Shown here piece by piece: positions 1,907-62,181 of a DNA stretch of 64,000 nucleotides. This DNA comes from an uncultured Candidatus Saccharibacteria bacterium. Its GTDB lineage: Bacteria; Patescibacteriota; CAZHWT01. Both the position numbers and the translations under genes were made by a program. The stretch is from positions 317,798 to 381,797 of the forward strand of contig CAZKPX010000001.1 in NCBI GenBank assembly GCA_964554805.1. Direction: 5' to 3'. Every line of letters starts with the position of its first letter. Position 1 is the stretch's first letter. The notes beneath the pieces were generated by a model. That model had not been told where the DNA came from, did no database searches, and saw only the letters and a program-made list of their open reading frames with translations.

Positions 1907-3793
1907 ATGGAATCGCAGGTTGAAGAGGTAAAGCGGAAAACTGATATTGTGGAAGTTATTGGCAGCTATGTTCGGCTGAATCGGGCGGGGCAGACCTATA
2001 AGGGGTTGTGTCCGTTTCATGGGGAGCGGACGCCGTCTTTTATGGTGTCGCCGGATCGTGGGACATGGCGGTGTTTTGGTTGTGGCGAGCATGGCGATGT
2101 GATTTCTTTTTTGGAAAAACATGATAATTTAACCTTTATTGAAGCCTTGGAACAGTTGGCAAAGCGGGCGGGGGTGGAATTGGAACGTGACGAGAAATTT
2201 GCAGCGAAGGGGCGCAGCAAGCAGCGCTTATATGACATTTTGAATTTGTCGGCTGAGTATTATACGTATTTGCTGGTGGAGCATGATTTGGGCAAGGAAG
2301 CCCGTGAATATTTAGCTAAGAGGCAGGTGGATAGTGAGCTGATTAAGCAGTATCGGCTTGGGTTTGCCCCTGATTCATGGCAGTCATTGCAGCAGTATTT
2401 GACTAAAAAAGGTTTTGGTTTGGAGGAAATTCGTCAATCGGGCATGAGTAGTCAGAATGATGGTGGTCGGGAGTATGATCGATTTCGGAATCGGGTGATG
2501 TTTGCGGTAACTGACGGGATGGGGCGAGTGGTGGGCTTTAGTGGGCGAAGTATGGAGGCTGAACCGAAGGGGGCCAAATACTTGAATAGTCCGGATGGGC
2601 CTTTGTTTCATAAGGGGCAGCTGCTGTATGGATTGTCGGTAGCCAAGGATTCAATTCGAAAAAAAGACCGAATTGTCTTGGTGGAAGGGAATGTTGATGT
2701 GCTATCGTCAGCCCGAGTGGGTGTGGGCGAGGTAGTTGCTCCATTGGGTACGGCCTTGACTGAAGATCAAGTCAAGGTGATGAAGCGATTTAGCGGTCGG
2801 GTCTATGTGGCTTTTGACGGGGATAAGGCGGGTCAAGCTGCGACTCGGAAAGCTATTGATTTGTTGCGGCAGGCTGAGTTGGATATAAAGATTGTTCGGT
2901 TGCCGCATGGCGGTGATCCGGATGAGTGCATTTCGATTGATGCTAACAGTTGGGTGAAAGCGGTGGATGAGGCGACGGAAGTGGTTGATTTTTACTTATC
3001 GTGGGCTGGATCTCAGCATGATTTACGAACCGAAAAGGGGAAACAGGCGGCGGCAGAGGAGATTTTGCCGTTGTTTATCTTAAATAATAACAATCAGCAA
3101 GCTCAAGCTATGCTTTTTCCGAAAATTGCCAATGCTTTGCAGTTGGATGAGGCGGTGTTGAGGAGACAGGCTAGGGAGATGCTGCGCCGGGAGGCGCAGG
3201 GACGACAAGCGACGAGCGACGAGCGACGAGGCTTGGGGGGCGGGAAAACGCAGGAACGGGCGACGGGCGACGAGCGACGAGTTGTTAAAAAACTAAGTCG
3301 GCAGGAGGTGTTGGTGGAGTATTTGGTGGGATGTTGGTTGAATTTGCCGTTGGAGGAGGTGCAGGCTGATCGGTTTGGTGAGATGTTGGCTTTGTTGCCA
3401 GTTGATGCGGCGGAACATGAGGCTGAATTGGTGGCTGCGTTTCGAGAAATGGTGGCCGAAAAGGGTAGATTGTCAGTTAAAAGATGGGCAGATAGTTTGT
3501 CTGAGGAGGGTCAGGCTGAATTGGACCGATTAAGTTCGGTAGTGATAGAGTCTAGTTTGACTGACAGTGGTACAATAGGCGTTGTTAATAACAGTTCTAT
3601 AACAGTTGATCAGCGCTTAACTGAGTTGCTTGATGTGGTACGAGAGATTAAAAGGCTTTCTTTGAAAAAGCAGTTGGATACACTAAGCCGTTCACTCAAG
3701 CAAGCAGAAGTGTTGGATAAACACAAAGTTTTGGAACTTCAACAACAATTTATTGAGATAAGTGGGCAACTTTCCGCTATGGGCAGGAAGTAG
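1907..3793 (+). CDS. dnaG: DNA primase
   Basis: CHC2 zinc finger CPFHGERTPSF..CFGCGEHGD; TOPRIM LVEGNVDVLS; 628 aa. Confidence 0.9.
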   Translation: MESQVEEVKRKTDIVEVIGSYVRLNRAGQTYKGLCPFHGERTPSFMVSPDRGTWRCFGCGEHGDVISFLEKHDNLTFIEALEQLAKRAGVELERDEKFAAKGRSKQRLYDILNLSAEYYTYLLVEHDLGKEAREYLAKRQVDSELIKQYRLGFAPDSWQSLQQYLTKKGFGLEEIRQSGMSSQNDGGREYDRFRNRVMFAVTDGMGRVVGFSGRSMEAEPKGAKYLNSPDGPLFHKGQLLYGLSVAKDSIRKKDRIVLVEGNVDVLSSARVGVGEVVAPLGTALTEDQVKVMKRFSGRVYVAFDGDKAGQAATRKAIDLLRQAELDIKIVRLPHGGDPDECISIDANSWVKAVDEATEVVDFYLSWAGSQHDLRTEKGKQAAAEEILPLFILNNNNQQAQAMLFPKIANALQLDEAVLRRQAREMLRREAQGRQATSDERRGLGGGKTQERATGDERRVVKKLSRQEVLVEYLVGCWLNLPLEEVQADRFGEMLALLPVDAAEHEAELVAAFREMVAEKGRLSVKRWADSLSEEGQAELDRLSSVVIESSLTDSGTIGVVNNSSITVDQRLTELLDVVREIKRLSLKKQLDTLSRSLKQAEVLDKHKVLELQQQFIEISGQLSAMGRK

Positions 3794-3910
3794 AATATTG
3801 GATATGGAATATTGAATATGGAGCTATATAGCTATATCCTATATTCAATATCCAGATACTAGTGTCCAATATTCTGGGATAATTGCATGAACTCGGGAGG
3901 GGTATTGTAT

Positions 3911-5101
3911 ATGGCGACTGAAAAAACAACAAAAACTACCAAATCCACAACTGTAAAAAGTGAAAAAGCAAGATCAACTAAGTCGGCTGCAACTAAGTCG
4001 GAGCAGGAAGTGGTTGATCCTAAAGCTCGGGCTTTGAAGGTTAAGAAGTTGTTGAAAATGGGCCAAGAACAGGGCTTTGTGACCTACAAGGATATCTTGG
4101 CGATCTTCCCTAATGCTGAAGAGAATGTTGAAGAGTTGGACACTGTGTATGCTCGACTTTTGGAAGAGAATATTGATGTGTTCGAAGTTGGCGATGAAGT
4201 GGTTGAAACCAAAGAAGATCCTTTGGAAAGCCTGAAGAAGCAGTTGGACGAATTGACAGCCAAAGAGGCTAAGAGTACTTCTGATCCGGTGCGCATGTAT
4301 TTGCGTGAAATCGGCAAGGTATCTCTGTTGAGTGCTGAAGATGAAATTAAATTGGCTCAGGCGGCTGAAAATGGTGATCGTGAGGCTGCTCAGAAGTTAA
4401 TTAACGCTAATTTGCGTTTAGTGGTGTCTATTGCTAAGAAGTATGTGGGTCGTGGTTTGACTTTGCTGGACTTGATTCAAGAAGGCAATATTGGCTTGAT
4501 GAAAGCAGTGGAGAAGTATGACTGGCGGCGTGGATTTAAGTTCTCGACCTATGCGACCTGGTGGATTCGCCAGGCTATTACTCGAGCGATTGCCGACCAG
4601 GCGCGAACGATTCGTATTCCAGTGCATATGGTGGAAACAATTAACAAGTTCATTCGGACTTCGCGTCGCATGGCTCAGGACTTGGGACGCGATCCTACTC
4701 CTGAAGAGGTCGCTGAGAAGATGGGTATCGAAGTGGAGAAGGCCCGGGAGATTGTTAAGATTTCTCAGGAGCCAACTAGCTTGGAGACTCCGGTGGGCGA
4801 GGAAGAAGATTCCAAGCTGGGCGACTTCATTAAAGATGATGTGATGATGGCGCCGGATGATGCGGCTTCTCATGAGCTGTTGAAGGAGCAAATGCAGGAA
4901 GTGCTGGATACTTTGGCTCCTCGCGAGCGTCGAGTTCTAATTTTGCGTTTCGGTCTGGAGGATGGTCGTCAGCGAACTCTAGAAGAGGTTGGAAAAGAAT
5001 TTGGCGTTACCCGAGAACGTATCCGTCAGATTGAGGCTAAGGCGCTAAGGAAGCTGAAGCATCCGACTCGATCGAAGAAGTTGAAAGACTACTTGGATTA
5101 A
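3911..5101 (+). CDS. rpoD: RNA polymerase sigma-70 factor RpoD
   Basis: Region 2 [16 protein letters not shown]; region 4 [26 protein letters not shown]; RBS gggagggg before ATG 3911 (the ORF is open from 3887). Confidence 0.9.
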
Positions 5102-5146
5102 TTGGCTGAAAGCCAATTAATCGGATATGGTAGATAGGATATAGAA

Positions 5147-5192
5147 TATCGAATAAAAGCCGCTGCAAGTTCAAAAACTCAACAGCGGCTTT
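5147..5192 (+). terminator. rho-independent terminator after rpoD
   Basis: aaagccgctg..cagcggcttt stem followed by a T-run. Confidence 0.65.
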
Positions 5193-21789: not shown

Positions 21790-22007
21790 CGTGGTGGTCG
21801 AGAAAACCCGCGAGGAAGGAGGTTATTACCTTCCTTCCTCGGGGGAATACATTTTATATTGGAGAAGGAGTTGGTTTTGTAAGTGAGAAGAAAGAAGAGA
21901 GATCTTGTGGAGCAACAGGCGACAAGCGACCCCGATAGATCGGGGCAGGCTCGGCGACGAGACCTGGATTTGCGAAGCAAGCAACAGTGAACCTTAATAA
22001 TCAAATA

Positions 22008-34093: not shown

Positions 34094-34225
34094 CCTGCTT
34101 AGCTGGCGAGTCTAGTGTAGAGAGATTCGGGAGGTAGTTCAATACAAGCGACGGGCGACGGGCGACGAGCGACGAGCCAGCTCGCACAAAGACACTAGAC
34201 AGAAGACAGAAGGCAGGGGACACGA

Positions 34226-35237: not shown

Positions 35238-35678
35238 ATGGAAGAATATACTTTGAATTATAAGGATGGAAGCCTGTGGGTTAAAGGATGGATGGAGAAC
35301 GGGCTGCAGCAAGGATATTGGGAATGGTTTCGCAAAGATGGGGTGAGGTTGCGATCGGGTCATTTTGAAAATGGTAAGGCGGTGGGTGAGTGGACTGCCT
35401 ATGATAAGCACGGTGAGGTATATACGGTTACGACTGCGCGTGACTTTGAGCGACGGGCGACGAGCGACAGGCGACAGGGGGAGGGGGATTTGCCGAAGGG
35501 TATTGGTGGGCCAGCTACGGCAGTCTTGAAGCTTGAAGGTTTGGTTTGGTTGAAAGACATTGCTCAGAAAACAGACAAGGAGTTGCTGAGCTTGCATGGA
35601 GTTGGGCCTAGGGCAGTGCGGATATTGAGGGAAACTATCCTGGGCAGTGCCGAGAAGGATCTTGAGACGCGGATATAG
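35238..35678 (+). CDS. MORN/YwqK-like repeat protein with a C-terminal helix-hairpin-helix
   Basis: GxWxxYxxxGxL-type repeats (GYWEWFRKDG, GEWTAYDKHG); C-terminus LHGVGPRAVRIL; contains an in-frame GCGACRAG-repeat insert. Confidence 0.45.
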   Translation: MEEYTLNYKDGSLWVKGWMENGLQQGYWEWFRKDGVRLRSGHFENGKAVGEWTAYDKHGEVYTVTTARDFERRATSDRRQGEGDLPKGIGGPATAVLKLEGLVWLKDIAQKTDKELLSLHGVGPRAVRILRETILGSAEKDLETRI

Positions 35679-41402: not shown

Positions 41403-41681
41403 GGCGATGAGTATACTACATTAGGGGAGGTACGAGATGCGTAGCCGCCTTTGGCGGCGGATATCGAGACGCGAGACAGGAGTACAGGAAGAGCTTACTT
41501 CCCCTACGTTTTTTGGTGATTTACGATATCCCATATCCCATACCCGCCACCAAAGGTGGCTGTGCTGTGTGGTAAGAAATAGACGAGTACAGGGTTATTC
41601 TTCAAACGCAGAAGACAGAAGGTAGTAGGTGGGCGATAGGGGTTATTGACAGGCAGGCATGGTTGGCGTAGGCTTTAACTA

Positions 41682-42753: not shown

Positions 42754-43067
42754 AGCCGTTTTGAGCTGTCTTGCCTCGATAGCGAAACATGGCCTCCTTT
42801 TAAGCTGGCATTGGTTGATATGACTAAAGCAACGCCAATTAATAAGAATGTTCTTTTACCATACTTTGGTCGCTAGTGCAACTCAAGAGGCAAGCGTGGG
42901 CATTGCTGGAGGCAAGCTCCCTTAGGGAGCGAGACTGGAGACAGGAGACAGGTGCTCTCAGCTAGCCAGATTTAATACGATATTCGCTTTGTAAGGCAAG
43001 TCTATAGTTGCTTTTGCCGGAGTAGTGTTATACTATTGCTGTAATACTTTATAGAAAGGATGTTATT

Positions 43068-48722: not shown

Positions 48723-48799
48723 TTGGAGTGAGAAGGAGAAGTGAGAAGGAAAAGTTTGTATGGTCTGTTTCTTATCGCTTCTTCTTTGCACTTGCTAAA

Positions 48800-49010: not shown

Positions 49011-49155
49011 AAAAGTGCAGAATGGTTGCGAAGGGGCTTAGACAGATATACCTTATATTGGGGCTGGGCGTCAAGGAGTGGGGCTGATTAGTTCATGACT
49101 GGGTGAGCGAGGGGATGGGGTGGGGTTGTTTGCTCTGATACGGTATAATTACTTA

Positions 49156-49204
49156 CAGAGAACAGAGAACAGAGAACAGAGAACAGAGAACAGAGAACAG
49201 AGAG
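49156..49204 (+). repeat. heptanucleotide simple-sequence repeat (CAGAGAA)6 plus CAGAGAG
   Basis: Direct count; lies between a tataat -10-like box (49144-49149) and the sortase ATG at 49216. Confidence 0.85.
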
Positions 49205-49215
49205 CTTTATTAATT

Positions 49216-49923: not shown

Positions 49924-49995
49924 ATACAGTTGTGAATTTATGGAGGTGGGAGGCTAGAGGCAGGGTTTTTATGTGGTTTTGAGTACGATCGGTAA

Positions 49996-50720: not shown

Positions 50721-50818
50721 GGGTGTGGGTTTATGTATTATAAAAGTCCTCTGTTTATGGAGGACTTTTATATATTTTGATATCTATTGATATTTTATGA
50801 TGTAGTTTAGACTTCTAT

Positions 50819-51685
50819 TTAGAGCTCTTCAAGCTTGAAGCCGTTGTCGTAGGATTGCTCAATATATTTGAGGTACTTCTCGGTGGTAGCAAGGCGCTTG
50901 TGGCCGGCTAGTTGAGAAATAACGACCAGGGATGTTCCGCTCTTGATATGATGAGCGATCCAGGTATGACGGAGGTCGTTAACACGAGCGTTTTTGACAC
51001 CAGCAATACGGAGATAGCGATCAATAGAAGTACGGATGTTGCGAACTAATAATGGCTTGCCGGTCTTGGTGATAAAAAGGATGTTGGTGCTGTTTGACTG
51101 AGGACGGACTGACAAATAGGCTTTGAGGGCATCAATGGCAGCTTTGGTCAGCGGAATATCGCGCACAGCGCCTTCGGTAGAAACGTGAAGTGTGCCTTCT
51201 TTTTTCTTATCATCAAAATTGATATCTTCAACGGTCAGGCTGGTCAGTTCACCAATACGAATACCGGTTTGGAGAAGCAGCTCAACGATGGCAGAGGTGC
51301 GAATATCACCGCGACAGGCATCGCGAAGCGCTCGATATTCAGTCTTGCTCAAAATACGAGGTGGAGGAGTGTCGAACTTAGGATGCGCTAATAAATTAGC
51401 AGGATCTTCGTTGATGGCATTCAGAGACTTGAGATAGCGGAAGAAGGTCTTGGTTGAGTTGGTCTTGCGAGAAATACTTTTAGCAGTATAGCCACCTTGA
51501 CTTAGTTTATTCATAAAGCCTTGTAAGTCTTCTTTGGTAGCATCAGTGGCCTCAAGCTTGCCATTTTCGGCCAAGAAATCAACCAATTGTTCAATATCCT
51601 TGCCGTACGCTAATACAGTGGAAGGAGAGCGGCGGTTGTCTTTGAGGTTGTTTACAAATTGTTGGTGCGCGTCTTTTAATAACAT
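50819..51685 (-). CDS. tyrosine site-specific recombinase (XerC/XerD-like)
   Basis: R..HxxR..Y catalytic residues (LRHTWIAH..GHKRLATTEKYL); 288 aa. Confidence 0.75.
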   Translation of the reverse strand: MLLKDAHQQFVNNLKDNRRSPSTVLAYGKDIEQLVDFLAENGKLEATDATKEDLQGFMNKLSQGGYTAKSISRKTNSTKTFFRYLKSLNAINEDPANLLAHPKFDTPPPRILSKTEYRALRDACRGDIRTSAIVELLLQTGIRIGELTSLTVEDINFDDKKKEGTLHVSTEGAVRDIPLTKAAIDALKAYLSVRPQSNSTNILFITKTGKPLLVRNIRTSIDRYLRIAGVKNARVNDLRHTWIAHHIKSGTSLVVISQLAGHKRLATTEKYLKYIEQSYDNGFKLEEL

Positions 51686-51997
51686 GGTAGTTACCCTTAT
51701 AGATATATTGCATCCGTCCGCTAACCGTTGGGTCTCACTAAGAGAGGGCTGATAGTGAAGCTTAGCGGTTGCACAGTCACATGGCCTATAATATAACAGA
51801 TGTTGTTTAGTCTGTCAAGGATTTTGGAGTAGCAATATTGCCGAGATAGTCATTTCTGATTATGCTTGCTTGTAAGCCGAGAGTAGTTGAGTTACACTTT
51901 AAGTGCGTCAAGTATCAAGCATGTTGTTGGTATGTAATGTAGTTTTGGATATTGCTAGTAGTCTTGGCTAGGATTTGATGCGTCATTTTAGTAATTA

Positions 51998-52396
51998 TTG
52001 TTCATGAACCGATCATTTTTCACCTCGCCTATATTAAGTGTGTGCTTGCTTGTAGTCTTTGGCTATATGGCAATTAATGTGGCTCAAACGGCTATTGGAG
52101 GGCGTGATACAAGCGGTGGCAAGAGTGATTTGGTTAAAGAAGTCGATACTTTGGTTCAAAAGAAGAAGCGTCTTGAGGATGAATTGGCTTGGGTAAAAAC
52201 TGAGCAGTACGTTGAGCAGGAAGCGCGAAATCAGCTTCATTTGACCAAGCCGAATGAGATTGTGGTGGTGTATCCGGCGCAGCAGGCTGTATTGGGTGAT
52301 TCTATGCAGACTCAGCGAAAAGTGGAAGAGCATAGGGATGAGTGGCCAGGATTTGTTGGGGAATGGTTGGAGATTTTTGGAATGCCCGCCCGCTAA
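51998..52396 (+). CDS. FtsB/DivIC-like septum formation initiator
   Basis: N-terminal TM helix plus coiled coil LEDELAWVKTEQYVEQEARNQLHLTKPNEIVV. Confidence 0.5.
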   Translation: MFMNRSFFTSPILSVCLLVVFGYMAINVAQTAIGGRDTSGGKSDLVKEVDTLVQKKKRLEDELAWVKTEQYVEQEARNQLHLTKPNEIVVVYPAQQAVLGDSMQTQRKVEEHRDEWPGFVGEWLEIFGMPAR

Positions 52397-52787
52397 GTTC
52401 GTTGGATGACTGATATCTGATTTGGAAAATGTAAAACAGGAGACGCGGGAGGAGTATAGCCCTGTTTGTGGCGGATATGGAGTATTGGATGTGAAGGGGG
52501 AGAGCAGGCAACCATAACACGAACCCGGAGCGGTGTGCCGGGTTCGTGTTATGGTTGGGTGTTGGAGATTTAGGGCTCTGGGGATTTGGGTAGGTTTAAG
52601 ATTACAGAAGAGGCAGGTAGTGGCAGGGGGCGCTTCTTTTATCTGGCTTGTTGGCTGGGGAGTAGGCTGGCTCGGTACTAGTTCGTATTCGCTATCAATC
52701 AGTGGTTGGTGGTTTGCAATAACAGGGAGATCATGGTATAGTAAGCGAGCTCGAAAGGTGGATTAGAGTGTTTGTATCTTACTGCGT

Positions 52788-52862
52788 CGGGGGTTGGAGG
52801 AGCGGCACCTCGCAAGGCTCATAACCTTGAGACCGTGGGTTCGAGTCCCACACCCCCAACCA
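52788..52862 (+). tRNA. initiator tRNA-fMet (anticodon CAT)
   Basis: C1-A72 mismatch (cgggggt / accccca); anticodon arm caagg-ctCATaa-ccttg; T-arm gtggg-ttcgagt-cccac; aCCA encoded. Confidence 0.8.
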
Positions 52863-52915
52863 AGTAGGATATATATCGGCTGTGAATGTGTGTAAAAGTT
52901 CAGTTTTTAAATTTA

Positions 52916-52990
52916 GTCAGCGTAGCTCAGTGGTAGAGCAGCGGACTCATAAGCCGCCGGTCACAGGTTCGAGCCCTGTCGCTGACACCA
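52916..52990 (+). tRNA. tRNA-Met or tRNA-Ile2 (anticodon CAT)
   Basis: Acceptor gtcagcg/cgctgac; anticodon loop ctCATaa; T-loop ttcgagc. Confidence 0.8.
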
Positions 52991-53240
52991 GAAGTCCGTT
53001 TAGCGGATTTTTATTTTTCCCTTATTTTGATTGATTATTATATATAATATAGAGGCTGCTCGTCTGTTGGCAGTCGTTCTTTTGTTGTGCTAAGATAGCA
53101 TAGTACTGATTGGCACATTGCTTGTGGCTATTACTGTGATAGTATATATCTGGAGTAGACTCAATCAGATGAATCAATTATATTTATAGTTGAGATTTGG
53201 AATACTGGCGTAGGCGGTTCAGATTTTAAGAAAGGCTTTT

Positions 53241-55211
53241 ATGGATTCAACACATTCTTCGGGTAATCAATTGACTAAGGGTAAGAGTAGTGGCGCAGGG
53301 GGGCAGGGTGGCTGGATGAACAATAGCCGCAACTATCTGGTTTATTTCATTGCGGTCGTTATCGGATTGCTGCTTATTTATACTTATATTTTCCCTCATG
53401 ATAGTGCGCCAGATCAGATTAACCTATCTCAGGCGATCCAGGATATTAATGAAGGCAAAGTTAAGCGAGCTTTGATTGACGGCGATACTGTTACTTTGGA
53501 ATACAAAGAAGACGGCGAGAAGAAGACAACTACTAAGGAAGCTGGGGATACGTTTATTAATCAATTAGTAGCAAATGGCGTGTCTTTGGATAAACTTGAG
53601 ATCGAGCCAAAAGATACAAGCAGTGATGCATTCTGGGGCACCTTGCTATCTTTCTTGCCTATTATATTGATTGCCGCCTTCTTTTTCTTTATTCTGCGTC
53701 AGTCTCGTAATGCTTCCGGATCTTTATTTGCCTTTGGTAAATCGCGCGCTAAGATGTTTGCGCAGGATCGTCCTAAGGTTAAATTTAAGGATGTGGCTGG
53801 CGTTGATGAGGCCAAGCAGGAATTGGAGGAAGTTATTGAGTTCTTGCGAACTCCAGAGAAGTTCCAGAAACTGGGAGCCAAGATTCCTAAGGGTGTATTG
53901 TTGGTAGGCCCTCCAGGTACGGGTAAGACCTTGCTAGCTCGAGCTATTGCCGGTGAAGCTGGAACGCCATTCTTCTCAATTGCCGGTAGTGAGTTTATGG
54001 AGATGTTGGTGGGTGTGGGCGCGAGCCGGGTTCGTGATTTGTTTGATACGGCCAAGAAAGCTTCGCCGGCCATTATATTTATCGATGAGATAGATGCGAT
54101 TGGTCGCCAGCGCGGAGCAGGTTTGGGTGGTGGCCATGATGAGAGAGAACAAACTTTGAACCAGATTTTGGTGGAGATGGATGGTTTTGATCAGACTAGC
54201 AATGTGATTGTGATTGCTTCGACCAACCGCCCTGATGTATTGGATCCAGCTTTGTTGCGACCGGGTCGATTTGATCGACGGGTTATTATTGATTTGCCTG
54301 ATCTTGAGGGGCGCAAGGCTATTATGAGTATTCATATGCGTAATAAGCCGATTGAGGCCGGAGTGGATGTGGTGAAGTTGGCTCGTCGGACCGTTGGTTT
54401 CTCGGGAGCTGATTTGGAAAGCATGCTTAATGAAGCAGCTATTACGGCAGCTCGCAAGAATGCTAAGGAGATTACTGCCTTGGACCTGGAAGATGCTGCG
54501 ACTAAGGTTAAGATGGGGCCTGAGAAGCGTCGTTTGCAGACCGAAGAGGATAAGCGATCGACTGCTTATCACGAAGCGGGTCATGCGATCGTGGCTCGGT
54601 TTATGCCTGAGACGGATCCGGTTCACCGCATTACGATTGTGTCTCGCGGTATGGCTCTGGGGTACAACCTGATTTTGCCGACTATGGATCGTTATAATGA
54701 GACTAAGACGCGGTTGTTCTCGATTATTGCTTATGCGATGGGTGGGCGAGCTGCTGAAGAGCTGATTTATGGTGAGCCGACAACTGGGGCTTCGAATGAC
54801 TTTGAGAAAGCGACTCAGATTGCTCGGGATATGGTAACTCGATATGGAATGAGCGAGCTGGGGCCGATCAATTTGGTTGCGTCTGAAGAAGAGATGGTCT
54901 TCCTAGGGCGCGGTGCTGGTCATCGGACAAATTTTTCTGAAGACACTAATCGGAAGATCGATGGTGAGGTGAAGCGTATTCTGGATGAAGCTTATGCGGC
55001 TGCTCTGAAGACATTGAAGGAGCATAAGGATAAGTTGGAAATAGTGACCGATACATTAATGGATCAGGAAACTATTGAGGCTGAAGAGTTTGAGAAGATG
55101 ATGATGGAAACTGAAAAATGGAAGGCTGGGAAGGCTAAAGCTAGCGACAAGCGACAGGCGGCGAGCGACGAGGGTGGGGAGAAGAGAGAAGAGAAAAGCG
55201 AGAAGAAGTAG
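53241..55211 (+). CDS. ftsH: ATP-dependent zinc metalloprotease FtsH
   Basis: Two N-terminal TM helices; Walker A GPPGTGKT; SRH region; zinc motif HEAGHA. Confidence 0.9.
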
Positions 55212-55285
55212 GATCTGTTACCGCTGATAATTAACATAGAAGTCAGAGCCGGGTTTATTGACCTGGCTCTGACTTGGTGTGGGGT

Positions 55286-56152
55286 TTACGATTGAGCGAA
55301 ATGGCTGTTGATATAGTCGAGAGTGCCATTGTCGAACAGGGTTGTGGGGTAGTCAATTGGGAATGGAGCACTTAGGTCTGTTAATTGACTGATCATCGAG
55401 GTTTTTCCGACGTAGATGAATTTGACTTGTAAGCCTTGTTTATGGAGGTGGGTAGCCATGTCTATATCTGATTTACTATCACCAAAGCATTGATATGAGT
55501 ATTTTGGACATGACTGAGACTGGTTTTGGAACATGATTTCTAACATTCGTTGGGCGCCTAAATCCTTGCCTGAGTGGTTGTTTTCGATGTCGGTAGCGAT
55601 AGCGGTGGGGTCAACTTTTAGCTGATCTGCTAGTTGATGGGTATTGATAAGAGCATTGAGATCGTTAACCATAGCATGTTGCTGTTGTTCAAATAGAGCG
55701 ATATCCAGACCAGTTTTCATTTCTACAGTAGCCATGGTCAACTTTGAATGATCATAGAACATGGTCTGGCTGTATTTATTAGTAACCAATTGGTTGATGT
55801 CATCTTGGAGAGATTTAGGGACAGCCGTATGAGGATCTATATTGATAATTGATGATCAGGTTTCGATAGGAGCTTGACTTAGTTGACTACCACGTATCCA
55901 AGTGCCACCCTTTTCTCCAATAGCCAGCAGATTTTGTGCTTTTTGCTGGTCAATTGATTGGATGAGAGGCTGTAATAAGGGTTGCTCTAGCCAGCTAATT
56001 GAACGGCCGGTGTTGAAGGTTATTAGATATCCGGATTGAAGAAGCTGGGAGAGAGCGGTGATTAGGGCTGGTTGTACTTGCTTGGTAGTGGGATTGGTTA
56101 AAACACCATCTACATCAAAGAGAAGGGCGATATTGGGGGCATTTGTATTCAT
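55286..56152 (-). pseudogene. HAD-superfamily hydrolase interrupted by an in-frame TGA
   Basis: Motif I LFDVDGVL in ORF 55856-56152 and motif IV CFGDSKSDIDMA in ORF 55286-55789; same frame, separated by one TGA (plus-strand tca at 55856-55858). Confidence 0.5.
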
Positions 56153-56201
56153 GCTGAAAGTATACAGTATCGTGGTACAATAGTCTCTGATAAAAGGAGG
56201 G

Positions 56202-58997
56202 GTGGTAATGAAGAAATTATTATTAGTTGATGGAAATGCTCAGCTACATCGGGCATATCATGCTATACCTCCGCTGACCACTCGGAGTGGGGAGCAGGTT
56301 AATGCTATTTTTGGATTTTGGTCGTTGTTTTTGCGATCGTTGAAGGATTTGGAGCCGGATGGGGTGGTGTTTACGTTTGATAAGTCGAGTAATACATTTC
56401 GACATGATATGTATGATAAATATAAGGCGACGCGGCAGAAGATGGAGCCTGATTTGGCGGCCCAGATTCCGAGACTGAAGGAAGTGGTGGCAGCCAGCAG
56501 GATGCCGGTGCTTGAGTTGGAGGGTTTTGAGGCTGATGATTTGATTGGGACGATGGCGCGGCAGGCTTTTGAGGGTTCTGATGCTTGCCAGGTTTATATT
56601 ATGACGGCTGATATGGACGCGGCTCAGTTGGTTAATGAGCGGGTGTCTATTTATACGGCTAAGCATAAAATTTCTGAAGTGGCTTTGTATGATGTGGCAG
56701 GGATTATAGAGAAATTTAAGGGGTTGAGGCCGGACCAGATTGTTGACTACAAGGCTTTGAGAGGCGATAGCTCGGATAATATTCCTGGTGTGGCCGGGGT
56801 GGGGGAGAAAACTGCTACTGATTTATTGTTGAGATACCAGCATCTGGACCCTATTTATGAGCATTTGACTGAGTTGCCTAATCGGGCTCAAATGTTGTTG
56901 GAACAGGGCAAGGACTTGGCTTATCTGTCGCAAAAATTGGCGACTATTAACACCGAAGCTCCGGTGTCGTTTGACTTTGAGGCTAGTGATATTGGGCAGT
57001 TTGATGGTGCGGCAGTGGGGGGATTGTTTCGGGAGCTTGAGTTTAGAAGTCTGGTTGGGAAGCTGCCGGTTAGTGAGCGACATGCGACAAGCGACAAGCG
57101 ACAAGAGTATTTAAGGGCTTCACTCCCTGTTACCGATAGCCTAGAGCTTGGAGGGGAGAATTTGGATAGAAGTGAGAAGAGAGAAGAGAGAAGCCAGCCT
57201 CTAGCCTCCTATGTCTTGGTAGAAAATGCGGTTGATTTGCAAAAAATCGTTGATGAGATAAAGAAATCTGGCGAGGTGGCTTTTGATACGGAGACGACGG
57301 GGGTGGATGTATGGCGGTCGGATGTGTTGGGAGTGTCATGTTCGGTGGAGGCGGGGACCGGTTATTATATTCCGGTGGCTGAATGGTCTATACCGTTGTT
57401 GAAGAGCTGGCTGGAGGATGAATCGATCAAAAAGATTGCTCATAACGCTAAGTTTGATGTTGAATCGTTGTTGCAAGTGGGAATTGAGGTGGCTGGAGTA
57501 AGTTTTGACACGATGTTGGCGGCCTATGTATTGAAAGAAGGCACCGGTCGGTATGGTTTGAAGGAGTTGGCTTTTGAGGAGTTGGGGATTAATGCTACGC
57601 CGATTACAGAGCTGATTGGGACCGGATCGAAGCAGTTGACGCTGGATATGGTGGATCAGCAGGAAGTGGCTCAGTATGCCGGCGCGGATGCTGATCATAC
57701 TTGGCAATTGTATAAAATATATAAACCGCAGTTTGAGGATCAGGATGGATTGCGTCGGATATTTTTTGATATTGAGATGCCAGTCAGTCAGGTTTTGACC
57801 AGTATGGAACGCAAAGGTATAGTGCTAGATAGCGAATTTTTGGCTGCTATGTCAACTAGATTAAGCGAACAGATTGGTCTGCTTGAGCAAGAAATTTATG
57901 CAGATGCCGGGCATGAGTTTAATATTAATTCGCCGAAGCAGTTGGGTGATGTTTTGTTTGATGAGTTGCATTTGCCGGTTAATAAGAAGACTAAAACTGG
58001 CCGCTCGACCGATGAGTCGGTGTTGCAGGGCTTGAAAGGGGCGCACCCGATTATTGAGCGAATATTACAATATCGTGAATTGTATAAGTTGCGCTCAACC
58101 TATGTAGATGCGTTGCCTCAGTTGGTGTCGCCTCGGGATGGGCGGATTCATACTTCGTATAATCAGGCGGTGGCGGCGACTGGACGATTGTCTTCGACCA
58201 ATCCTAACTTGCAGAATATTCCAATTAAGACTGAAGTAGGGCGGCGGATTCGCCAGGCTTTTTTGGCTAATCAGGGTCAAAAATTGGTATCGATTGACTA
58301 CTCCCAAATTGAATTACGATTGCTGGCATATGTATCGGGTGATAAGAACTTGATCGAGGCGTTTGCTAGCGGAGAGGATGTGCATAAGGCGACGGCGGCT
58401 AAGGTGTTTAATTGCTCTATAGCTGAAGTGACGAGTGATCAGCGGCGGGTGGCCAAGACAATTAACTTCGGTATTATGTACGGTCAATCGGCGCATGGGT
58501 TGTCTCAACAGTTGGGCATTGGGCGAGAGCAGGCGGCGACTTTTATTAGTGATTATTTCAAAGTTTACGACGGGGTGAGAGCTTATCTGGATTCATCGAT
58601 AGCTGAAGCTCATAAGCAGGGCTTTGTGGAGACGGTATTTGGTCGTCGTCGTCGGATTCCGGAGCTGGCTTCTAAGAATTTTATGTTGCGGCAGGGGGCT
58701 GAGCGAATGGCTATTAATATGCCGATTCAGGGAGCGGCTGCGGATATTATTAAGATTGCTATGATCGCAGTTGATGGATACTTGGAAAATAATACATTTG
58801 AGGCTCAGATGTTGCTGCAGGTGCATGATGAATTGGTGTTTAGTATGCCTGAGTCGGAAATTGCGGTGGTGGTGCCGAAGATTGTTGGGTTGATGGAGAA
58901 TGTGGGTGAGTTTGCGGAGGATAAAAAACCGACTGTACAATTGGTGGCGGAGGCGAAGGTGGGGGATAATTGGGGGGAGATGGTGGCTTTGGATTAG
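56202..58997 (+). CDS. polA: DNA polymerase I
   Basis: 5'-3' exonuclease N-terminus; 3'-5' exonuclease VAFDTETTG; polymerase motifs DYSQIELR and QVHDELVF; 931 aa. Confidence 0.9.
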   Translation: MVMKKLLLVDGNAQLHRAYHAIPPLTTRSGEQVNAIFGFWSLFLRSLKDLEPDGVVFTFDKSSNTFRHDMYDKYKATRQKMEPDLAAQIPRLKEVVAASRMPVLELEGFEADDLIGTMARQAFEGSDACQVYIMTADMDAAQLVNERVSIYTAKHKISEVALYDVAGIIEKFKGLRPDQIVDYKALRGDSSDNIPGVAGVGEKTATDLLLRYQHLDPIYEHLTELPNRAQMLLEQGKDLAYLSQKLATINTEAPVSFDFEASDIGQFDGAAVGGLFRELEFRSLVGKLPVSERHATSDKRQEYLRASLPVTDSLELGGENLDRSEKREERSQPLASYVLVENAVDLQKIVDEIKKSGEVAFDTETTGVDVWRSDVLGVSCSVEAGTGYYIPVAEWSIPLLKSWLEDESIKKIAHNAKFDVESLLQVGIEVAGVSFDTMLAAYVLKEGTGRYGLKELAFEELGINATPITELIGTGSKQLTLDMVDQQEVAQYAGADADHTWQLYKIYKPQFEDQDGLRRIFFDIEMPVSQVLTSMERKGIVLDSEFLAAMSTRLSEQIGLLEQEIYADAGHEFNINSPKQLGDVLFDELHLPVNKKTKTGRSTDESVLQGLKGAHPIIERILQYRELYKLRSTYVDALPQLVSPRDGRIHTSYNQAVAATGRLSSTNPNLQNIPIKTEVGRRIRQAFLANQGQKLVSIDYSQIELRLLAYVSGDKNLIEAFASGEDVHKATAAKVFNCSIAEVTSDQRRVAKTINFGIMYGQSAHGLSQQLGIGREQAATFISDYFKVYDGVRAYLDSSIAEAHKQGFVETVFGRRRRIPELASKNFMLRQGAERMAINMPIQGAAADIIKIAMIAVDGYLENNTFEAQMLLQVHDELVFSMPESEIAVVVPKIVGLMENVGEFAEDKKPTVQLVAEAKVGDNWGEMVALD

Positions 58998-59241
58998 ACG
59001 GGGTCTCGGGGCACCCATGCTCGCGCATTCCTCGGGAAATGTAAATTTCCCTGCGGGATGGGCTGTGCTGGGCTTCCCTGCGACAGCTTCTGTGATCACC
59101 CCTGCCTTCGCAGGGGCAGGCTCTCAAAATCTCCTCGCAATAAAATAATTTATTGCTGCGGGATTTCAAGGGCTTCGCTCCCAGCAGATTTAAGGTTGTA
59201 GGTATTGGGTTCTTTGGTGAGCGCTGTCTCCAGTCGCCCGG

Positions 59242-59952
59242 ATGAATTGCATAAATGGGAGCCAGATGATTATGAAAGCTTTGCTTACTTCGGATGGAAT
59301 AACTAATGAATCTTTGATGGTGACTTTGAAAGGTTTGGCTGTCATGGATCAACCGAAGGTGGCTTTTGTGGCTACGGCGGCTGGGTTGGAAGGGGATCAA
59401 AGTTGGGTTGAGGAGATTCGGCAGGGTATAAGAGGTGTGGGCGGGGTGATTATTGAAACGGATATTAGCAAATTAAGCCAGCTGCAGATAAGGGATAATT
59501 GTGAGAGTGCTGATGTTATTTGGCTTAATGGTGGGAATAATTTTTATTTAGCCTATTGGATGAGGAGGTCTGGCTTGGCTGGGATGCTGCCTTTGATGCT
59601 GGAAGATAAGGTTTATGTGGGTTTGAGTGCGGGATCGATGGTTGCGGGTTGTAGTATGAGCCTGACAGAGACTTTCTTTCCTGGCGAGCCTAAAGAATTT
59701 TTTGCAGCTGTACCAGAAGTGGGTGATGAGCAGGTTGAAGGCCTTGGTTGGTTGGATTTTGCTATTCTGCCGCATTATTTGTCTGAGAATCCTTATTTCT
59801 CTGAATTGAGGGATGCAGATGAGGTGAAGAAAAATGCTCTACAATATGGTTATCCTATTTGGGCGATTAGTGATGGTTGTGGTATTGTTGTGGACGGAAA
59901 TAAGGTGGAGATTGTGGGTGATGGGGCGTGGAAGAAATTTAACCAGAACTAA
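59242..59952 (+). CDS. peptidase S51 family protein
   Basis: VIWLNGGNNFYL..GLSAGSMV; the likely start is ATG 59266 or 59272. Confidence 0.6.
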   Translation: MNCINGSQMIMKALLTSDGITNESLMVTLKGLAVMDQPKVAFVATAAGLEGDQSWVEEIRQGIRGVGGVIIETDISKLSQLQIRDNCESADVIWLNGGNNFYLAYWMRRSGLAGMLPLMLEDKVYVGLSAGSMVAGCSMSLTETFFPGEPKEFFAAVPEVGDEQVEGLGWLDFAILPHYLSENPYFSELRDADEVKKNALQYGYPIWAISDGCGIVVDGNKVEIVGDGAWKKFNQN

Positions 59953-60007
59953 CTACTAAGATTCCTGTCTGCTCAGGAATGGCGGTGAGAGTGAGAGGAG
60001 TATTAAA

Positions 60008-60901
60008 ATGCCAGAGTTACCGGAAGTTGAAACTATTGTGGTGGGTTTGAGAGAGGCCTTGGTGGGGAGGGTGATTGAGAGTCTAGATGTTCGGTTGGCC
60101 AAGACGGTGTGGTTGGGGGATGTGCGGGCGACTGGGGAGGTGGAGGTTGAGCAGTTTGTAGCCTTGGTGAAGGGGAAAAGGGTGGAGTCTGTTGATCGAC
60201 GGGCTAAGATGATAATTGTGGGATTGTCGGATAATACTTGTCTGTTGATTCATTTGAAGATGACGGGGCAGCTGATTTATGTTGATGAGGCTGAGCAGCG
60301 GATTGCTGGAGGGCATCCGACTCGGGAGATGATGGGGGAATTGCCGGCTAAGTCGACGCGGGTGATTTTTAAGCTGGACAAAGGGATTTTGTACTACAAT
60401 GACCAGCGGCAGTTTGGGTATGTGAAGGTTATTCCTAGCAGCGCCTTGGCAGAGACGGAGCCGTATAAGAGTTATGGTCCGGAGCCGATGTCGGAATTGT
60501 TTACGGTAGATTATTTAGAGCGGATGATTAAGAGACGGTCGCGTATTACTATCAAGCAATTGTTACTCGATCAGTCGGTTATTGCTGGTGTGGGAAACAT
60601 ATATGCTGATGAGGCGTTGTTTGCAGCAAGAATTTACCCAGCTCGTATGACGAGTAGCCTAACTAAGAAGGAGATTTTGCTGTTGCGAGAAACAATTCGA
60701 CAGGTGTTGGCACTCGGCATACAGTATGGCGGGACGTCGAGTGAGCACTATGTGCAGGCTAATGGAGTCAAGGGAACGATGCAGGATTATTTGGAAGTGT
60801 ATCGTCGGGAGGGGCAGAGTTGTTCGAGGTGTGGGGCTGAGATTGGCAAGACGGTGGTTGGGGGTAGGGGAACGCACTTTTGTCCTAATTGCCAGCTCTG
60901 A
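60008..60901 (+). CDS. mutM: formamidopyrimidine-DNA glycosylase
   Basis: N-terminal MPELPEVE; H2TH; C-terminal zinc finger CSRCG..CPNCQ; ends with a TGA stop. Confidence 0.85.
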   Translation: MPELPEVETIVVGLREALVGRVIESLDVRLAKTVWLGDVRATGEVEVEQFVALVKGKRVESVDRRAKMIIVGLSDNTCLLIHLKMTGQLIYVDEAEQRIAGGHPTREMMGELPAKSTRVIFKLDKGILYYNDQRQFGYVKVIPSSALAETEPYKSYGPEPMSELFTVDYLERMIKRRSRITIKQLLLDQSVIAGVGNIYADEALFAARIYPARMTSSLTKKEILLLRETIRQVLALGIQYGGTSSEHYVQANGVKGTMQDYLEVYRREGQSCSRCGAEIGKTVVGGRGTHFCPNCQL

Positions 60902-61116
60902 TCATAGGTTGGAGAGCGACAAGAATGGGCGAGGAGTTAAATCAAAAGGCAAAGGTCAAAAGGCAAAAGTTAAAATAAAAGGTCAAAAGTTGTCTTTAAT
61001 CTGAGAATACAGCCAGTCAATTGCTCATACCTACTATGCAAGCAGCTAACTCTCAAATCAACGCATACCACTTTTGATTTTCCACTTTAACTTTTTCCTT
61101 ATTGTAGCTCTTTGCT

Positions 61117-62181
61117 TTGTCAGTGGTGTATAGTAAAGGCATGAATAAAGATTCTCAGCTGAAGGTTACTATGATTTCGGAGAGTGTGTTTACGGTGAAG
61201 GGGCATGGGGTGCATACGGCGTTTGTGGAGATGACGGCGGCGCTGGAGGCTCGGGATGATGTGGATGTTAAGGTGAATACGTTTCGACGGGCGGATGTGA
61301 CTCATATTCAGACGGTTGGTGGTTATTCTTTGCTGCATTTGTTGTTTGGAAGTGGCAAGAAGGTGGTGTCGGTGCATGTTATCCCAGATTCATTTGTGGG
61401 ATCGCTGGTCGGGGTTAAATATTGGTACGGACTGTCGGTTTGGTATCTGAGGTTCTTTTATGGACGAGCTGATCGACTATTGGCTGTATCTGAGGTGGTT
61501 AAATCAACTTTGGAGGGTCAGCTGAGAGTCAAGAAACCGATTGAAGTACTGTATAACACGGTTGATCGAAAAAAATATGCTAATAATGAAGCTGATCGTA
61601 AGGCTGCTCGGGAGAAGTTGGGTATTCCAGCTAATAAAAAGGTGGTTGTGAGCAATGGACAGGTTCAGCCTCGCAAGCGTTATGATGTTTTTATAGACAT
61701 GGCCAAGCAGATGCCGGAAGTGCAGTTTATTTGGGTGGGAGGCATTCCGTTTAAAAGCTTAGGCGCTGATCATGAAAAAATGGAAGAGATGATGACCAAC
61801 GCACCGAGCAATGTTAAAACGACTGGGGTCATTGATTTGTCTGAAGTGCGGGATTATTTTTGGGCAGCTGATGTGTTTTTCTTGCCATCTAACCAAGAAA
61901 ATCATCCGTTGGCGGTGATTGAGGCGGCGGCTAGTGGATTGCCAATTTTGGTACGAGATATTAAGGAGTATGACGCTTCGTTTGGTCAAGATGTGGTGCG
62001 GGGGACGGATGAGACCTTTAAAGAGTTGATTGAGAAGCTGCTAAACGATAAGGCTTTTGCTGATAAGGCTCGTAAGGGTGCGGAGAGTATTATTGGCCGG
62101 TTTGATAATGTGGCTGGTGGCCAGCGGTTGGTCAAAGCGTATGCTTTGACGGTGACGAGTACGAGCGACGAGCACGAGTAG
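61117..62181 (+). CDS. glycosyltransferase family 4 (GT-B)
   Basis: E-x7-E-like C-terminal motif EAAASGLPILVRD; 354 aa. Confidence 0.7.
   Translation: MSVVYSKGMNKDSQLKVTMISESVFTVKGHGVHTAFVEMTAALEARDDVDVKVNTFRRADVTHIQTVGGYSLLHLLFGSGKKVVSVHVIPDSFVGSLVGVKYWYGLSVWYLRFFYGRADRLLAVSEVVKSTLEGQLRVKKPIEVLYNTVDRKKYANNEADRKAAREKLGIPANKKVVVSNGQVQPRKRYDVFIDMAKQMPEVQFIWVGGIPFKSLGADHEKMEEMMTNAPSNVKTTGVIDLSEVRDYFWAADVFFLPSNQENHPLAVIEAAASGLPILVRDIKEYDASFGQDVVRGTDETFKELIEKLLNDKAFADKARKGAESIIGRFDNVAGGQRLVKAYALTVTSTSDEHE

Follow-up and report, generated by a model that had tools for sequence, protein, structure and literature searches.

Heptanucleotide tandem repeats in genes and intergenic DNA of an uncultivated Patescibacteria-like bacterium

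Described heptanucleotide repeats and the present arrays

In many bacteria heptanucleotides have been reported to be the commonest class of long simple-sequence repeats (SSRs), and polymerase slippage has been proposed as their origin (Mrazek 2007 as cited in PMC4679880; PMC4692102). According to these two papers, the long heptanucleotide SSRs of prokaryotes treated by Mrazek, Guo and Shah (2007) consist of a 7-nt unit in 2-7 head-to-tail copies, with period 7 standing above other periods, and occur sporadically and lineage-specifically, mostly in intergenic DNA. The arrays described here, found in a 64-kb stretch of DNA analysed at its full length (the window), are alike in these respects. 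The hosts named in those accounts are Burkholderia, Xanthomonas, cyanobacteria and actinobacteria, whereas the present host belongs to a Patescibacteria-like uncultivated lineage that, as far as a limited literature search goes, does not seem to have figured in accounts of heptanucleotide repeats. Compared with the repeats as summarised there, the present ones also differ in that about one third of the arrays are translated in housekeeping genes, an unusually large share, and in that the purine-rich units are strictly confined to one strand.

Cyanobacterial STRRs (CCCCAGT and others), GGGGAYT of Nostoc and GGGAATC of Xanthomonas (PMC4692102) resemble the present repeats, as a few favoured heptamers recur at many loci in arrays of about 4 units. 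STRRs occur even inside an essential RNA gene, that of RNase P RNA (Vioque 1997, as cited in PMC4748335). The units of these three groups carry G-tracts and fold into G-quadruplexes (PMC4692102), whereas no GGG tract is present in GCGACRR, GAGAAGA or ACAGAGA, which leaves them short of the at least four tracts of at least three G, spaced by the unit, that a G-quadruplex takes. Xanthomonas heptamers are about equally frequent on both strands and only 7-11% intragenic (PMC4692102), whereas purine-rich arrays here are found on the + strand only. The TAACTGA direct repeat of marine Beggiatoaceae (PMC4679880) is alike in that array formation is restricted to one specific heptamer, to the exclusion of related heptamers and single copies, and in that many arrays immediately precede start codons, with copies inside ORFs at protein ends. 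TAACTGA gives stops in all forward frames and is therefore barred from genes in that orientation (PMC4679880), whereas the unrelated unit GCGACRR carries no T and is read through. Contingency-locus SSRs, such as the tetranucleotides of Haemophilus (PMC2651432), also have a unit length not divisible by 3 in or upstream of genes, where gaining or losing a single unit would put the frame out or change a leader; in contrast, the arrays here are short, showed no length differences between the assemblies compared and sit in essential genes, the switching off of which would be lethal. We place the arrays of this Patescibacteria-like lineage with the heptanucleotide SSRs already known as cyanobacterial STRR, TAACTGA and Xanthomonas GGGAATC.

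The seven-base unit and the excess of period 7

An earlier note on this DNA had described a short repeat inserted in several essential genes and encoding ATSD(E/K)RR. The repeat is real: GCGACRAGCGAC, allowing at most one mismatch, is matched 17 times where 0.32 matches are expected (0 of 100 shuffles reached 17), all matches are on the + strand, and the peptides quoted at the time are correct. What had been overlooked is the unit, GCGACRR, and its strict period of 7, head to tail and without spacer, as seen with TRF, in an exact-run census and in a print of the sequence in rows of seven. The 'ATSDERR insert' is thus a 7-base microsatellite, one of many in this genome, which corrects an attractive but wrong reading, as it is neither a miniature mobile element nor a conserved peptide motif. 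Seven GCGACRR arrays of 19-63 nt are present in the 64 kb, two of them in dnaG, one each in polA, ftsH and a MORN-like/HhH gene, and two at non-coding sites (Table 1).

Table 1. Heptamer arrays and related repeats in the window (positions are those of the window)
Position	Strand	Array	Location	Peptide or further detail
3203..3230	+	GCGACRR array 1: CGACAAG, CGACGAG x3; TRF period 7, 4.0 copies, 95% match	dnaG linker	RQATSDERR
3256..3279	+	GCGACRR array 2; TRF period 7, 3.4 copies	dnaG linker	RATGDERR
3793..3853	both	AT-rich GRATATN family	dnaG-rpoD spacer	TRF rows 3793-3822, 3832-3853
5134..5155	+	ATAGRAT heptamers	intergenic	TRF
21881..21930	+	GAGAAGA-type purine-rich units (21881-21903), then GCAACAG GCGACAA GCGAC (21912-21930)	non-coding	
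34147..34224	+	composite, ~11 units: GCGACGG x2, GCGACGA x2 and two decayed units, followed by AGACAGA-type units	intergenic, between stop at 34093 and YunG-like ORF start at 34226	1-nt register slip; TRF rows 34147-34177, 34189-34216
35448..35478	+	GCGACRR, 4 units	146-aa ORF, MORN-like/HhH interdomain linker	ERRATSDRRQ
41526..41542	-	GGGATAT x2.4	intergenic	TRF and exact runs
42931..42952	+	GAGACWG x3	intergenic, between divergent genes	TRF
48727..48755	+	AGTGAGA/AGGAGAA, purine-rich	downstream of terminator-like hairpin	
49155..49203	+	(ACAGAGA)x7	between TATAAT box (49144-49149) and sortase start codon (49216)	TRF 7.0 copies, 100% match
55144..55206	+	9 units in a single register	ftsH C-terminal tail	63 nt = 21 codons; shorter delimitation 55143-55169
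57076..57105	+	GCGACAA, 4.3 units (TRF)	polA linker	ERHATSDKRQ
57168..57193	+	GAGAAGA-type, 3.7 units (TRF)	same polA linker	SEKREERS
60942..60989	+	AAAGGTC/AAAGGCA, 7/14 nt	fpg-GT4 spacer	TRF
62155..62178	+	degenerate mixed 6/7-nt ACGAGY repeat	GT4 C-terminus	TSTSDEHE; TRF period 6/13
63501..63516	+	TATACAG x2.3	intergenic	TRF

Period 7 is the dominant class of tandem repeat in the window, with fifteen arrays (and four more of period 14), whereas 30 dinucleotide shuffles gave 1.33 on average and never more than 3; TRF matches of the period-7 arrays are 75-100%, and exact lag-7 runs are also present. The corresponding numbers for periods 6, 8, 9 and 10 are 3, 0, 4 and 3, and periods 8, 10 and 11 do not exceed expectation. 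The resulting density of 0.23 period-7 arrays per kb compares with 0.12/kb, made up of other units, in family-level relatives and with 0.045/kb in distant PolA loci that total 1.13 Mb and show no peak at period 7. Approximately 13 of 21 arrays lie in non-coding DNA, which makes up about 18% of the window. At least three unit families are represented, namely GCGACRR, GAGAAGA/AGACAGA/ACAGAGA and GRATATN. Single GCGACRR units outside arrays number about 12 on the + strand, where 12.6 are expected (a count that sets aside a period-24 repeat gene), and 13 on the - strand, where 8.6 are expected.

The non-coding site at 21.9 kb that had been listed before does exist, with 2.7 units at 21912-21930; the interval quoted for it, 21935-21960, consists of a neighbouring hairpin and one single unit. 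No Pfam-supported ORF was found in 20.3-22.5 kb.

For the ftsH, polA and dnaG arrays an assembly artefact is ruled out by contigs from other sequencing runs, which are 100% identical to the window over 14.2 kb (49174-63376, including the ftsH and polA arrays) and over 4.2 kb (335-4567, including the dnaG arrays). At the level of assemblies, contigs from SRR16798008, SRR16798009 and SRR16797978, runs that probably belong to one study, show no difference from the window. The metagenome scan returned no variant of the same species, its best match having 45% identity.

Arrays inside genes and their orthologs

As the earlier note had stated, the coding copies lie in linkers and tails; none falls within a Pfam domain, and each is in a hypervariable linker or a C-terminal tail. 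Array 1 of dnaG covers aa 433-441, downstream of Toprim (ending at aa 341), in a linker that is hypervariable in alignment A2; DnaG is also longer by 11 aa. The GCGACAA array of polA covers aa 292-301, between 5_3_exonuc (ending at 268) and the 3'-5' exo domain (starting at 337). The ftsH array, downstream of Peptidase_M41 (ending at aa 619), reads GCGACAA GCGACAG GCGGCGA GCGACGA GGGTGGG GAGAAGA GAGAAGA GAAAAGC GAGAAGA. What had been called a MORN protein has no Pfam MORN match and is MORN-like by fold and homologs. Its insert is a single 33-nt block, corresponding to a clean 11-aa gap in three full-length homologs, and falls on the one stretch of the model where pLDDT is low (down to 58 at residues 71-80 and below 50 at 78-82, with both flanking domains above 90). 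The GT4 tail, about 7 aa longer than in a 78%-identical ortholog, had been counted as a further member; it is degenerate, holds just one GCGACGA unit and is at most a weak relative of the GCGACRR repeats.

That the copies keep the frame and encode ATSD(E/K)RR is correct, but both are the arithmetic outcome of a 7-nt unit without T. As three units make 21 nt, an array of a 7-mer yields the same cyclic heptapeptide in any frame, and since neither GCGACRR nor GAGAAGA contains T, no stop codon is possible in the three frames. The seeming conservation of the peptide thus follows from the period-7 DNA as a by-product. Sense peptides of the arrays are charged, and antisense peptides are hydrophobic or Cys-rich. 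The case serves as a worked example of a unit whose length is not divisible by 3 and that can still be read, three units giving one heptapeptide, and of selection confining arrays in genes to T-free units in disordered linkers. It also points to a risk for annotation, in that such arrays give rise to falsely 'conserved' peptides of low complexity and to small hypothetical ORFs, with cases in Treponema, Xanthomonas and Burkholderia.

Arrays are absent from the orthologs of DnaG, PolA, FtsH, the MORN-like protein and GT4 that were compared, including those of the closest relative found (PolA 76% and DnaG 57% identity). The PolA array is missing from 17 homologs and from the DNA of locus L001, the FtsH tail is missing in three relatives, and no relative compared has an array at a conserved position. 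The comparison of dnaG, ftsH and polA with orthologs that had been proposed earlier thus finds the insert to be lineage-specific and the peptide to be in no ortholog, and the arrays are present in frame inside conserved genes.

Origin and persistence of the arrays

The reading we prefer, with a probability of roughly 0.6, is that the runs are heptanucleotide SSRs which have grown locally and have been filtered by selection, and that the peptide is functionless. Strand slippage or misalignment in replication would start the arrays and extend them in place, units would diverge by point mutation, and variant units could then expand again. Selection would decide where arrays persist. Any unit and any length would be allowed in intergenic DNA, while survival in a gene would require a unit that is stop-free in all three frames, since all of them are read in turn, a net length change that is a multiple of 3, and a charged low-complexity heptapeptide landing where a linker or tail is disordered. 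Beyond lengthening the linker, presumably neutrally, this peptide would have no function of its own. Adjacent arrays share a common 7-nt register with decayed units between them (9 units in ftsH, about 11 at the 34.1-kb site and 6 in L125, a 63% relative), and neighbouring units in one array carry the identical variant; the shared register, the diverged units and the common variants fit local duplication or slippage followed by decay.

Slippage does not account for everything. Single GCGACRR units are not enriched and yet there are seven arrays, so random seeding with slippage fails to explain the unit specificity. In the dnaG linker, which is mid-gene, a step of +7 or +14 shifts the frame, so the array must appear in steps of 3n nt. 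The 33-nt block of the MORN-like gene and the 11-aa excess of DnaG look more like block insertion, and the 26-nt identity between 3256-3281 (dnaG array 2 and the next two bases) and 34151-34176 also counts against slippage. Peptide tolerance cannot account for the + strand polarity of the non-coding purine-rich arrays. Array copy number was the same in the assemblies compared, which come from at least three runs, and thus gives no sign of ongoing slippage.

The earlier note had likened the run to Rickettsia palindromic elements and considered it a tiny mobile or expanding repeat tolerated in proteins. Rickettsia palindromic elements are palindromic, hairpin-forming sequences of approximately 100-150 bp with a conserved full-length consensus. 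They are alike in being lineage-specific DNA placed in frame in housekeeping genes at tolerated positions, but the analogy fails, as the arrays here are head-to-tail 7-mers of 19-63 nt without hairpin, terminal inverted repeats or conserved flanks. Expansion and tolerance are retained, mobility is not. DNA folding gave z-scores of -0.65 to +1.6 for the array of the sortase leader and for five other array sites, coding or intergenic, with no hairpin or palindrome at any of them. Only the 21.9-kb segment departs from this (z -2.42), owing to the hairpin at 21931-21945 beside the array.

Alternatively, pre-formed GCGACRR blocks might be copied between loci by template switching, ectopic gene conversion or a unit-recognising enzyme and afterwards trimmed by selection, as a 'nomadic microsatellite'. 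GCGACRR occurs at seven loci although its single units are at expectation, the MORN-like insertion is clean and equals the excess of DnaG in length, the two loci with 26-nt identity have their variants in the same order, and GCGAC-core and GAAGA-type units are side by side in L125 as well. In the TAACTGA study, too, the repeats or a protein that binds them are considered as possibly mobile, with no known mechanism (PMC4679880). We nevertheless regard such dispersal as rather unlikely. Conserved element boundaries, terminal inverted repeats and target-site duplications were not found at the arrays, their flanks are unrelated, each array has its own length and its own pattern of unit variants, the decayed units in register point to long local histories, and no candidate enzyme was identified within the window. 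The 26-nt identity is itself weak evidence, given just four unit variants and 21 array pairs. The more specific proposal that a favoured unit, with a GCGAC core and often adjoining GAAGA-type units, is copied between loci in blocks by a templated-insertion or unit-recognising mechanism rather than born at each site, and so makes up a minimal non-palindromic, non-autonomous element landing in frame in essential genes, seems slightly less probable again; if true, it would also explain the unit specificity of cyanobacterial STRRs and of the Beggiatoa TAACTGA repeats. The recurrence of one unit at many loci is a question common to both of these, for which a tiny genome is a convenient place for tests.

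Selection for a linear motif ATSDxRR in several proteins, with the likeness in DNA secondary, would agree with the related peptides in five proteins. It is already contradicted and hardly credible, as identical units are present in non-coding DNA (34147-34177 and 21912-21930), the peptides are cyclic permutations set by the 7-nt period, the codon choice is identical across loci, no ortholog carries the motif, and the insert lies in a segment predicted with low confidence and probably disordered. The earlier view of a repeat at the level of DNA is upheld by the same non-coding units and ortholog comparison. Selection might instead act on the nucleic acid, with purine-rich heptads serving as sites for a protein with a 7-nt footprint (e.g. 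a cold-shock-type OB-fold) or in tuning of mRNA leaders, and with coding copies as spill-over. Regulatory roles have been discussed, as has binding of CspB with one protein to each heptamer (PMC4679880). All 14 purine-rich arrays, seven of them non-coding, are on the + strand, and (ACAGAGA)x7 fits exactly between the TATAAT box and the start of the sortase gene, where relatives are nearly leaderless, with TATAAT 6-10 nt from ATG and no array. This role appears improbable to us, less so than that of a protein motif: array position is conserved in no relative, units are heterogeneous, the AT-rich family occurs in both orientations, and the polarity is not assignable to function, since the + strand is also the sense strand for most genes and G-rich throughout the window. 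Of the seven GAGAAGA-type arrays, four have a GCGAC array no more than 100 nt away, which 0 of 100,000 random placements reach, but shared permissive sites, and a single array diverging in register, would be expected to produce such clusters too.

The heptanucleotide unit and its arrays

The short motif that an earlier note had proposed for this DNA exists: GCGACRAGCGAC, with at most one mismatch, has 17 matches against 0.32 expected, and none of 100 dinucleotide shuffles reached 17. In the scan of the window all 17 matches were on the + strand. More accurately, the motif is a tandem repeat with the 7-nt unit GCGACRR, which forms head-to-tail arrays. The positions of these and of the other arrays with the same period are listed in the table.

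Positions of the period-7 arrays, and places of the coding arrays within their proteins (nt, window coordinates; aa, protein coordinates)
Feature	Position	Strand	Source or location
GCGACRR array in dnaG	3203-3230	+	TRF
GCGACRR array, second in dnaG	3256-3279	+	TRF
GCGACRR array, intergenic	34147-34177	+	TRF
GCGACRR array in 146-aa ORF (MORN-like/HhH)	35448-35478	+	TRF
GCGACRR array in ftsH	55143-55169	+	TRF
GCGACRR array in polA	57076-57105	+	TRF
GCGACRR array, 2.7 units	21912-21930
GAGAAGA arrays	55179-55206, 57168-57193, 21881-21903, 48727-48755
AGACAGA/GAGACAG arrays	34189-34216, 42931-42952
Perfect (ACAGAGA)x7	49155-49203
AT-rich GRATATN family	3793-3853, 5134-5155, 41526-41542	both
AAAGGTC array	60942-60989
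TATACAG array	63501-63516
PolA arrays	aa 292-301, 323-331		between 5'-nuclease (ends 268) and 3'-5' exonuclease (starts 337)
DnaG arrays	aa 433-458		downstream of Toprim (ends 341)
FtsH 63-nt array	aa 635-655		after Peptidase_M41 (ends 619)
MORN-like/HhH insert ERRATSDRRQG	aa 71-81		between two folded domains
GT4 array-like repeat	C-terminal tail		protein end

Two of the sites named in the note had to be modified. An array is present near 21.9 kb, but slightly off the proposed 21935-21960, its true position being 21912-21930; the repeat in the tail of the glycosyltransferase GT4 (62155-62178) is a mixed 6/7-nt ACGAGY repeat with one GCGACGA unit, and is a weak member only. Directly 3' of the 21.9-kb array lies a perfect hairpin, CCCGATAGATCGGGG (21931-21945), followed by a second small hairpin.

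Other sequencing runs yielded contigs that match the window at 100% identity along 14.2 kb (49174-63376) and 4.2 kb (335-4567). Searches outward from the genes at the window's edges gave nothing beyond short identical contigs. An assembly artefact is excluded for the dnaG, ftsH and polA arrays because these identical contigs include them; none of the contigs reaches the arrays at 21.9, 34.1 and 35.4 kb.

GCGACRR is part of a wider excess of period-7 repeats. The tandem-repeat caller TRF, with overlapping rows merged, reported 15 period-7 and 4 period-14 arrays in the window, whereas 30 dinucleotide shuffles averaged 1.33 period-7 arrays and never exceeded 3. Periods 8, 10 and 11 were at or under the shuffle expectation, and exact lag-p runs numbered 7 at period 7 versus 0-3 at each other period from 2 to 15. 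The GRATATN family consists of heptamers built on GGATAT/GAATAT and located in gene spacers; the copy in the dnaG-rpoD spacer is an imperfect inverted repeat which, judged by its sequence, could be an operator-like site.

The density of period-7 arrays was 0.23/kb in the window versus 0.045/kb in 1.13 Mb of distant PolA neighbourhoods without a period-7 peak, a set of metagenome-scan relatives at 45% identity or less that is background and not sister taxa. Family-level relatives (L122-L125) had a milder excess of 0.12/kb with differing units (CTAAATA, CCAACTC, CTGAAGA). No period-7 array at all was found in the relative with 76% PolA identity (L001), and just two, each of 2 copies, in L122, a relative from the same sample with 57% DnaG identity. 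The GCGACRR array is absent from the nearest relative found.

Reading frame and place in the proteins

The arrays had also been described as in frame and as encoding ATSD(E/K)RR, which is true but reflects the arithmetic of a 7-nt unit and not selection on the motif. Three units make 21 nt or 7 codons, so that an array is read in three phases in turn, and any frame gives one heptapeptide, cyclically permuted (ATSDERR, ATSDKRQ or ATGDRRQ; EKREERR from GAGAAGA). The peptide looks conserved because each frame gives this identical cyclic heptapeptide, and a stop codon is impossible on the + strand because the units are without T. Convergence on a protein motif was rejected. Translation of GCGACRR and GAGAAGA units from the opposite strand would yield hydrophobic or Cys-rich peptides, which can explain why the coding arrays are sense-only.

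A repeat at the DNA level, as opposed to an ancestral peptide, had been proposed, and the check for ATSD-type peptides in orthologs bears this out, as the orthologs do not share them. In PolA the array peptides occur in 0 of 17 homologs; the linker of the window protein is the longest in the alignment, so that its closest relatives are gapped there by some 18 columns or more, and the 76% relative has unrelated DNA at the array position. The array segment of DnaG is unalignable among 13 homologs, and the protein is 11 aa longer than its closest homolog. For FtsH the array region corresponds to 23- to 32-residue alignment gaps in three relatives, and the GT4 tail exceeds that of the 78% ortholog by about 7 aa.

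Aligned with three full-length homologs, the product of the 146-aa ORF (35238-35678) has 11 extra residues as a clean insertion. In its AlphaFold model the insert is the sole stretch predicted with low confidence (10-residue block mean 58, residues 78-82 below 50), while both flanking domains score above 90. The name 'MORN protein' used in the note is supported in part: there is no Pfam MORN match, but the protein models confidently as a beta-rich MORN-like N-domain joined to a helix-hairpin-helix C-domain. Single-domain homologs number in the thousands, and the two-domain layout was seen in 3 among the 150 matches listed.

Classification and origin of the arrays

The arrays are heptanucleotide microsatellites, a known kind of repeat, in a Patescibacteria-like, strongly strand-skewed small genome; this placement comes from distant named matches (Patescibacteria, Microgenomates, Beckwithbacteria, Chloroflexota). 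Three of four features of SSRs were found; as to the fourth, length polymorphism, the contigs from other runs had the same array lengths as the window over the stretches they cover. The tests for Rickettsia palindromic elements (RPE) and G-quadruplexes were negative. In many bacterial genomes heptanucleotides are reported to be the commonest units of long SSRs, and a contact of 7 nt made by the polymerase has been proposed as the reason (Mrazek 2007, as summarised in PMC4679880 and PMC4692102). Unit-specific heptamers are known in cyanobacteria as STRRs, which also occur within the gene for RNase P RNA (cited in PMC4748335). Xanthomonas has GGGAATC and Nostoc GGGGAYT (PMC4692102), and Beggiatoaceae have TAACTGA; for this last unit the cause of the specificity is left unexplained, and copies within ORFs, as here, also lie at protein ends (PMC4679880).

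A synthetic ATSDERR query retrieved small hypothetical ORFs in Treponema denticola, Xanthomonas, Burkholderia and Myxococcales, and the same or similar heptamers are therefore translated in Treponema denticola, Xanthomonas and Burkholderia too; nothing came from the window's own genome, because a match of 9 aa within a long protein does not score highly enough. GCGACRR x3 gave scattered single matches in many high-GC genomes (Streptomyces, Gemmatimonadota, Acidimicrobiia and others, among the matches listed). The notable feature of the window is the number of arrays read through inside housekeeping genes, and the remaining puzzle is the unit specificity together with the strand polarity.

Printed in rows of seven, the ftsH tail is a single-register array of 9 units (63 nt, 21 codons), in the order GCGACAA, GCGACAG, GCGGCGA, GCGACGA, GGGTGGG, GAGAAGA, GAGAAGA, GAAAAGC, GAGAAGA. 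The 34.1-kb site has about 11 units, two of them decayed, and a 1-nt slip; a 63% relative (L125) likewise holds in a single register TGAAGAC x2, AGAAGAC, TGTCGAC and TAGCGAC x2. Of the seven GAGAAGA-type arrays, four have a GCGAC array no more than 100 nt away, which 0 of 100,000 random placements matched. From the shared 7-nt register it follows that the GCGAC-type and GAAGA-type 'pairs' are diverged parts of single older arrays. Adjacent units tend to share one variant. With the shared register, this points to arrays that grew and decayed locally, the usual microsatellite life cycle.

Slippage alone does not explain the recurrence of the unit, the 11-aa excesses, the 26-nt identity or the + strand polarity. 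Outside arrays, single GCGACRR units occur about as often as expected, yet there are seven arrays of this unit in 64 kb; at mid-gene positions only length steps of 3n nt are viable, and two genes (DnaG, MORN-like) are longer by exactly 11 aa; positions 3256-3281 are identical to 34151-34176. Because of these observations two further explanations stay alive. Copying of GCGACRR blocks between loci is unlikely. The comparison of array flanks found nothing in common between loci, and the arrays, 19 to 63 nt long, differ one by one in the order of unit variants. That the heptamers are a functional nucleic-acid motif is more doubtful still.

The likening to RPE, and with it a mobile element, was not upheld, as the defining features of RPE, REP and MITE elements were not found. 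When six array sites were folded as DNA (five GCGACRR sites, coding or intergenic, plus the sortase leader), z-scores ran from -0.65 to +1.6; the sole significant score (z -2.42, a seventh segment at 21900-21965) arises because hairpins adjoin the array and are not inside it. CRISPR and other spaced repeats are out since the arrays are without spacers, and G-quadruplexes since the units are without G-tracts.

A 990-aa ORF (44781-47753) supplies 10 of the 22 single GCGACRR matches on the + strand outside arrays. Its period-24/72 nt repeats (45.8-46.6 kb) encode T/P/E-rich (TPEPT-like) segments, in a locally GC-rich region of low skew.

Strand bias, the sortase leader and other features

A crude gene map (82% coding) places about 13 of the 21 arrays outside coding DNA. 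Setting aside a trivial 2-copy ATGACCA in the helicase gene (18060-18074), the truly coding arrays all consist of purine-rich units that are (almost) free of T and lie on the sense strand. All 14 purine-rich arrays are on the + strand, 7 of them non-coding. That strand is richer in G (30%) than in C (18.6%) and is sense for most genes, and replication and transcription effects are therefore inseparable within the window. GC skew is +0.2 to +0.4 in 13 of 16 4-kb windows and drops to about zero in the stretches 12-16 kb and 44-48 kb. High GC skew is common to genus-level relatives (L001 +0.36, L122 +0.19) and about 0 in the family-level L123-L125; AT skew is negative, consistent with a C-to-T bias of the + strand.

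The 49-nt (ACAGAGA)x7 array stands between a TATAAT box (49144-49149, recognised by eye only) and the sortase ATG (49216), giving about 66 nt from TATAAT to ATG. In two relatives (L123 ~4220-4235, L125 ~2785-2801) the sortase TATAAT is 6-10 nt before the ATG without an array, and from this spacing the gene looks leaderless there. The promoter scan found no sigma-70 consensus site around the sortase and YunG leaders.

A candidate HDV-like ribozyme (RF02682; 20255-20321, +) sits immediately beyond the DEAD/HA2 helicase gene; its 35.1 bits (E = 3.5e-4) fall short of the gathering score, 44. The next 2.2 kb or so (20300-22500) hold no Pfam-supported ORF. Just after tRNA-Ser(cga) is a 79-nt direct repeat (451-608) in 2 copies of 87% identity, both beginning with a terminator-like hairpin (GTACCTCCCTAAAGGAGGT...). 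At 48800-48876 on the - strand ARAGORN reports a tRNA with anticodon TAT (tRNA-Ile), where Rfam also finds a tRNA; this would be uncommon because bacterial AUA is usually decoded by a modified CAU-anticodon tRNA.
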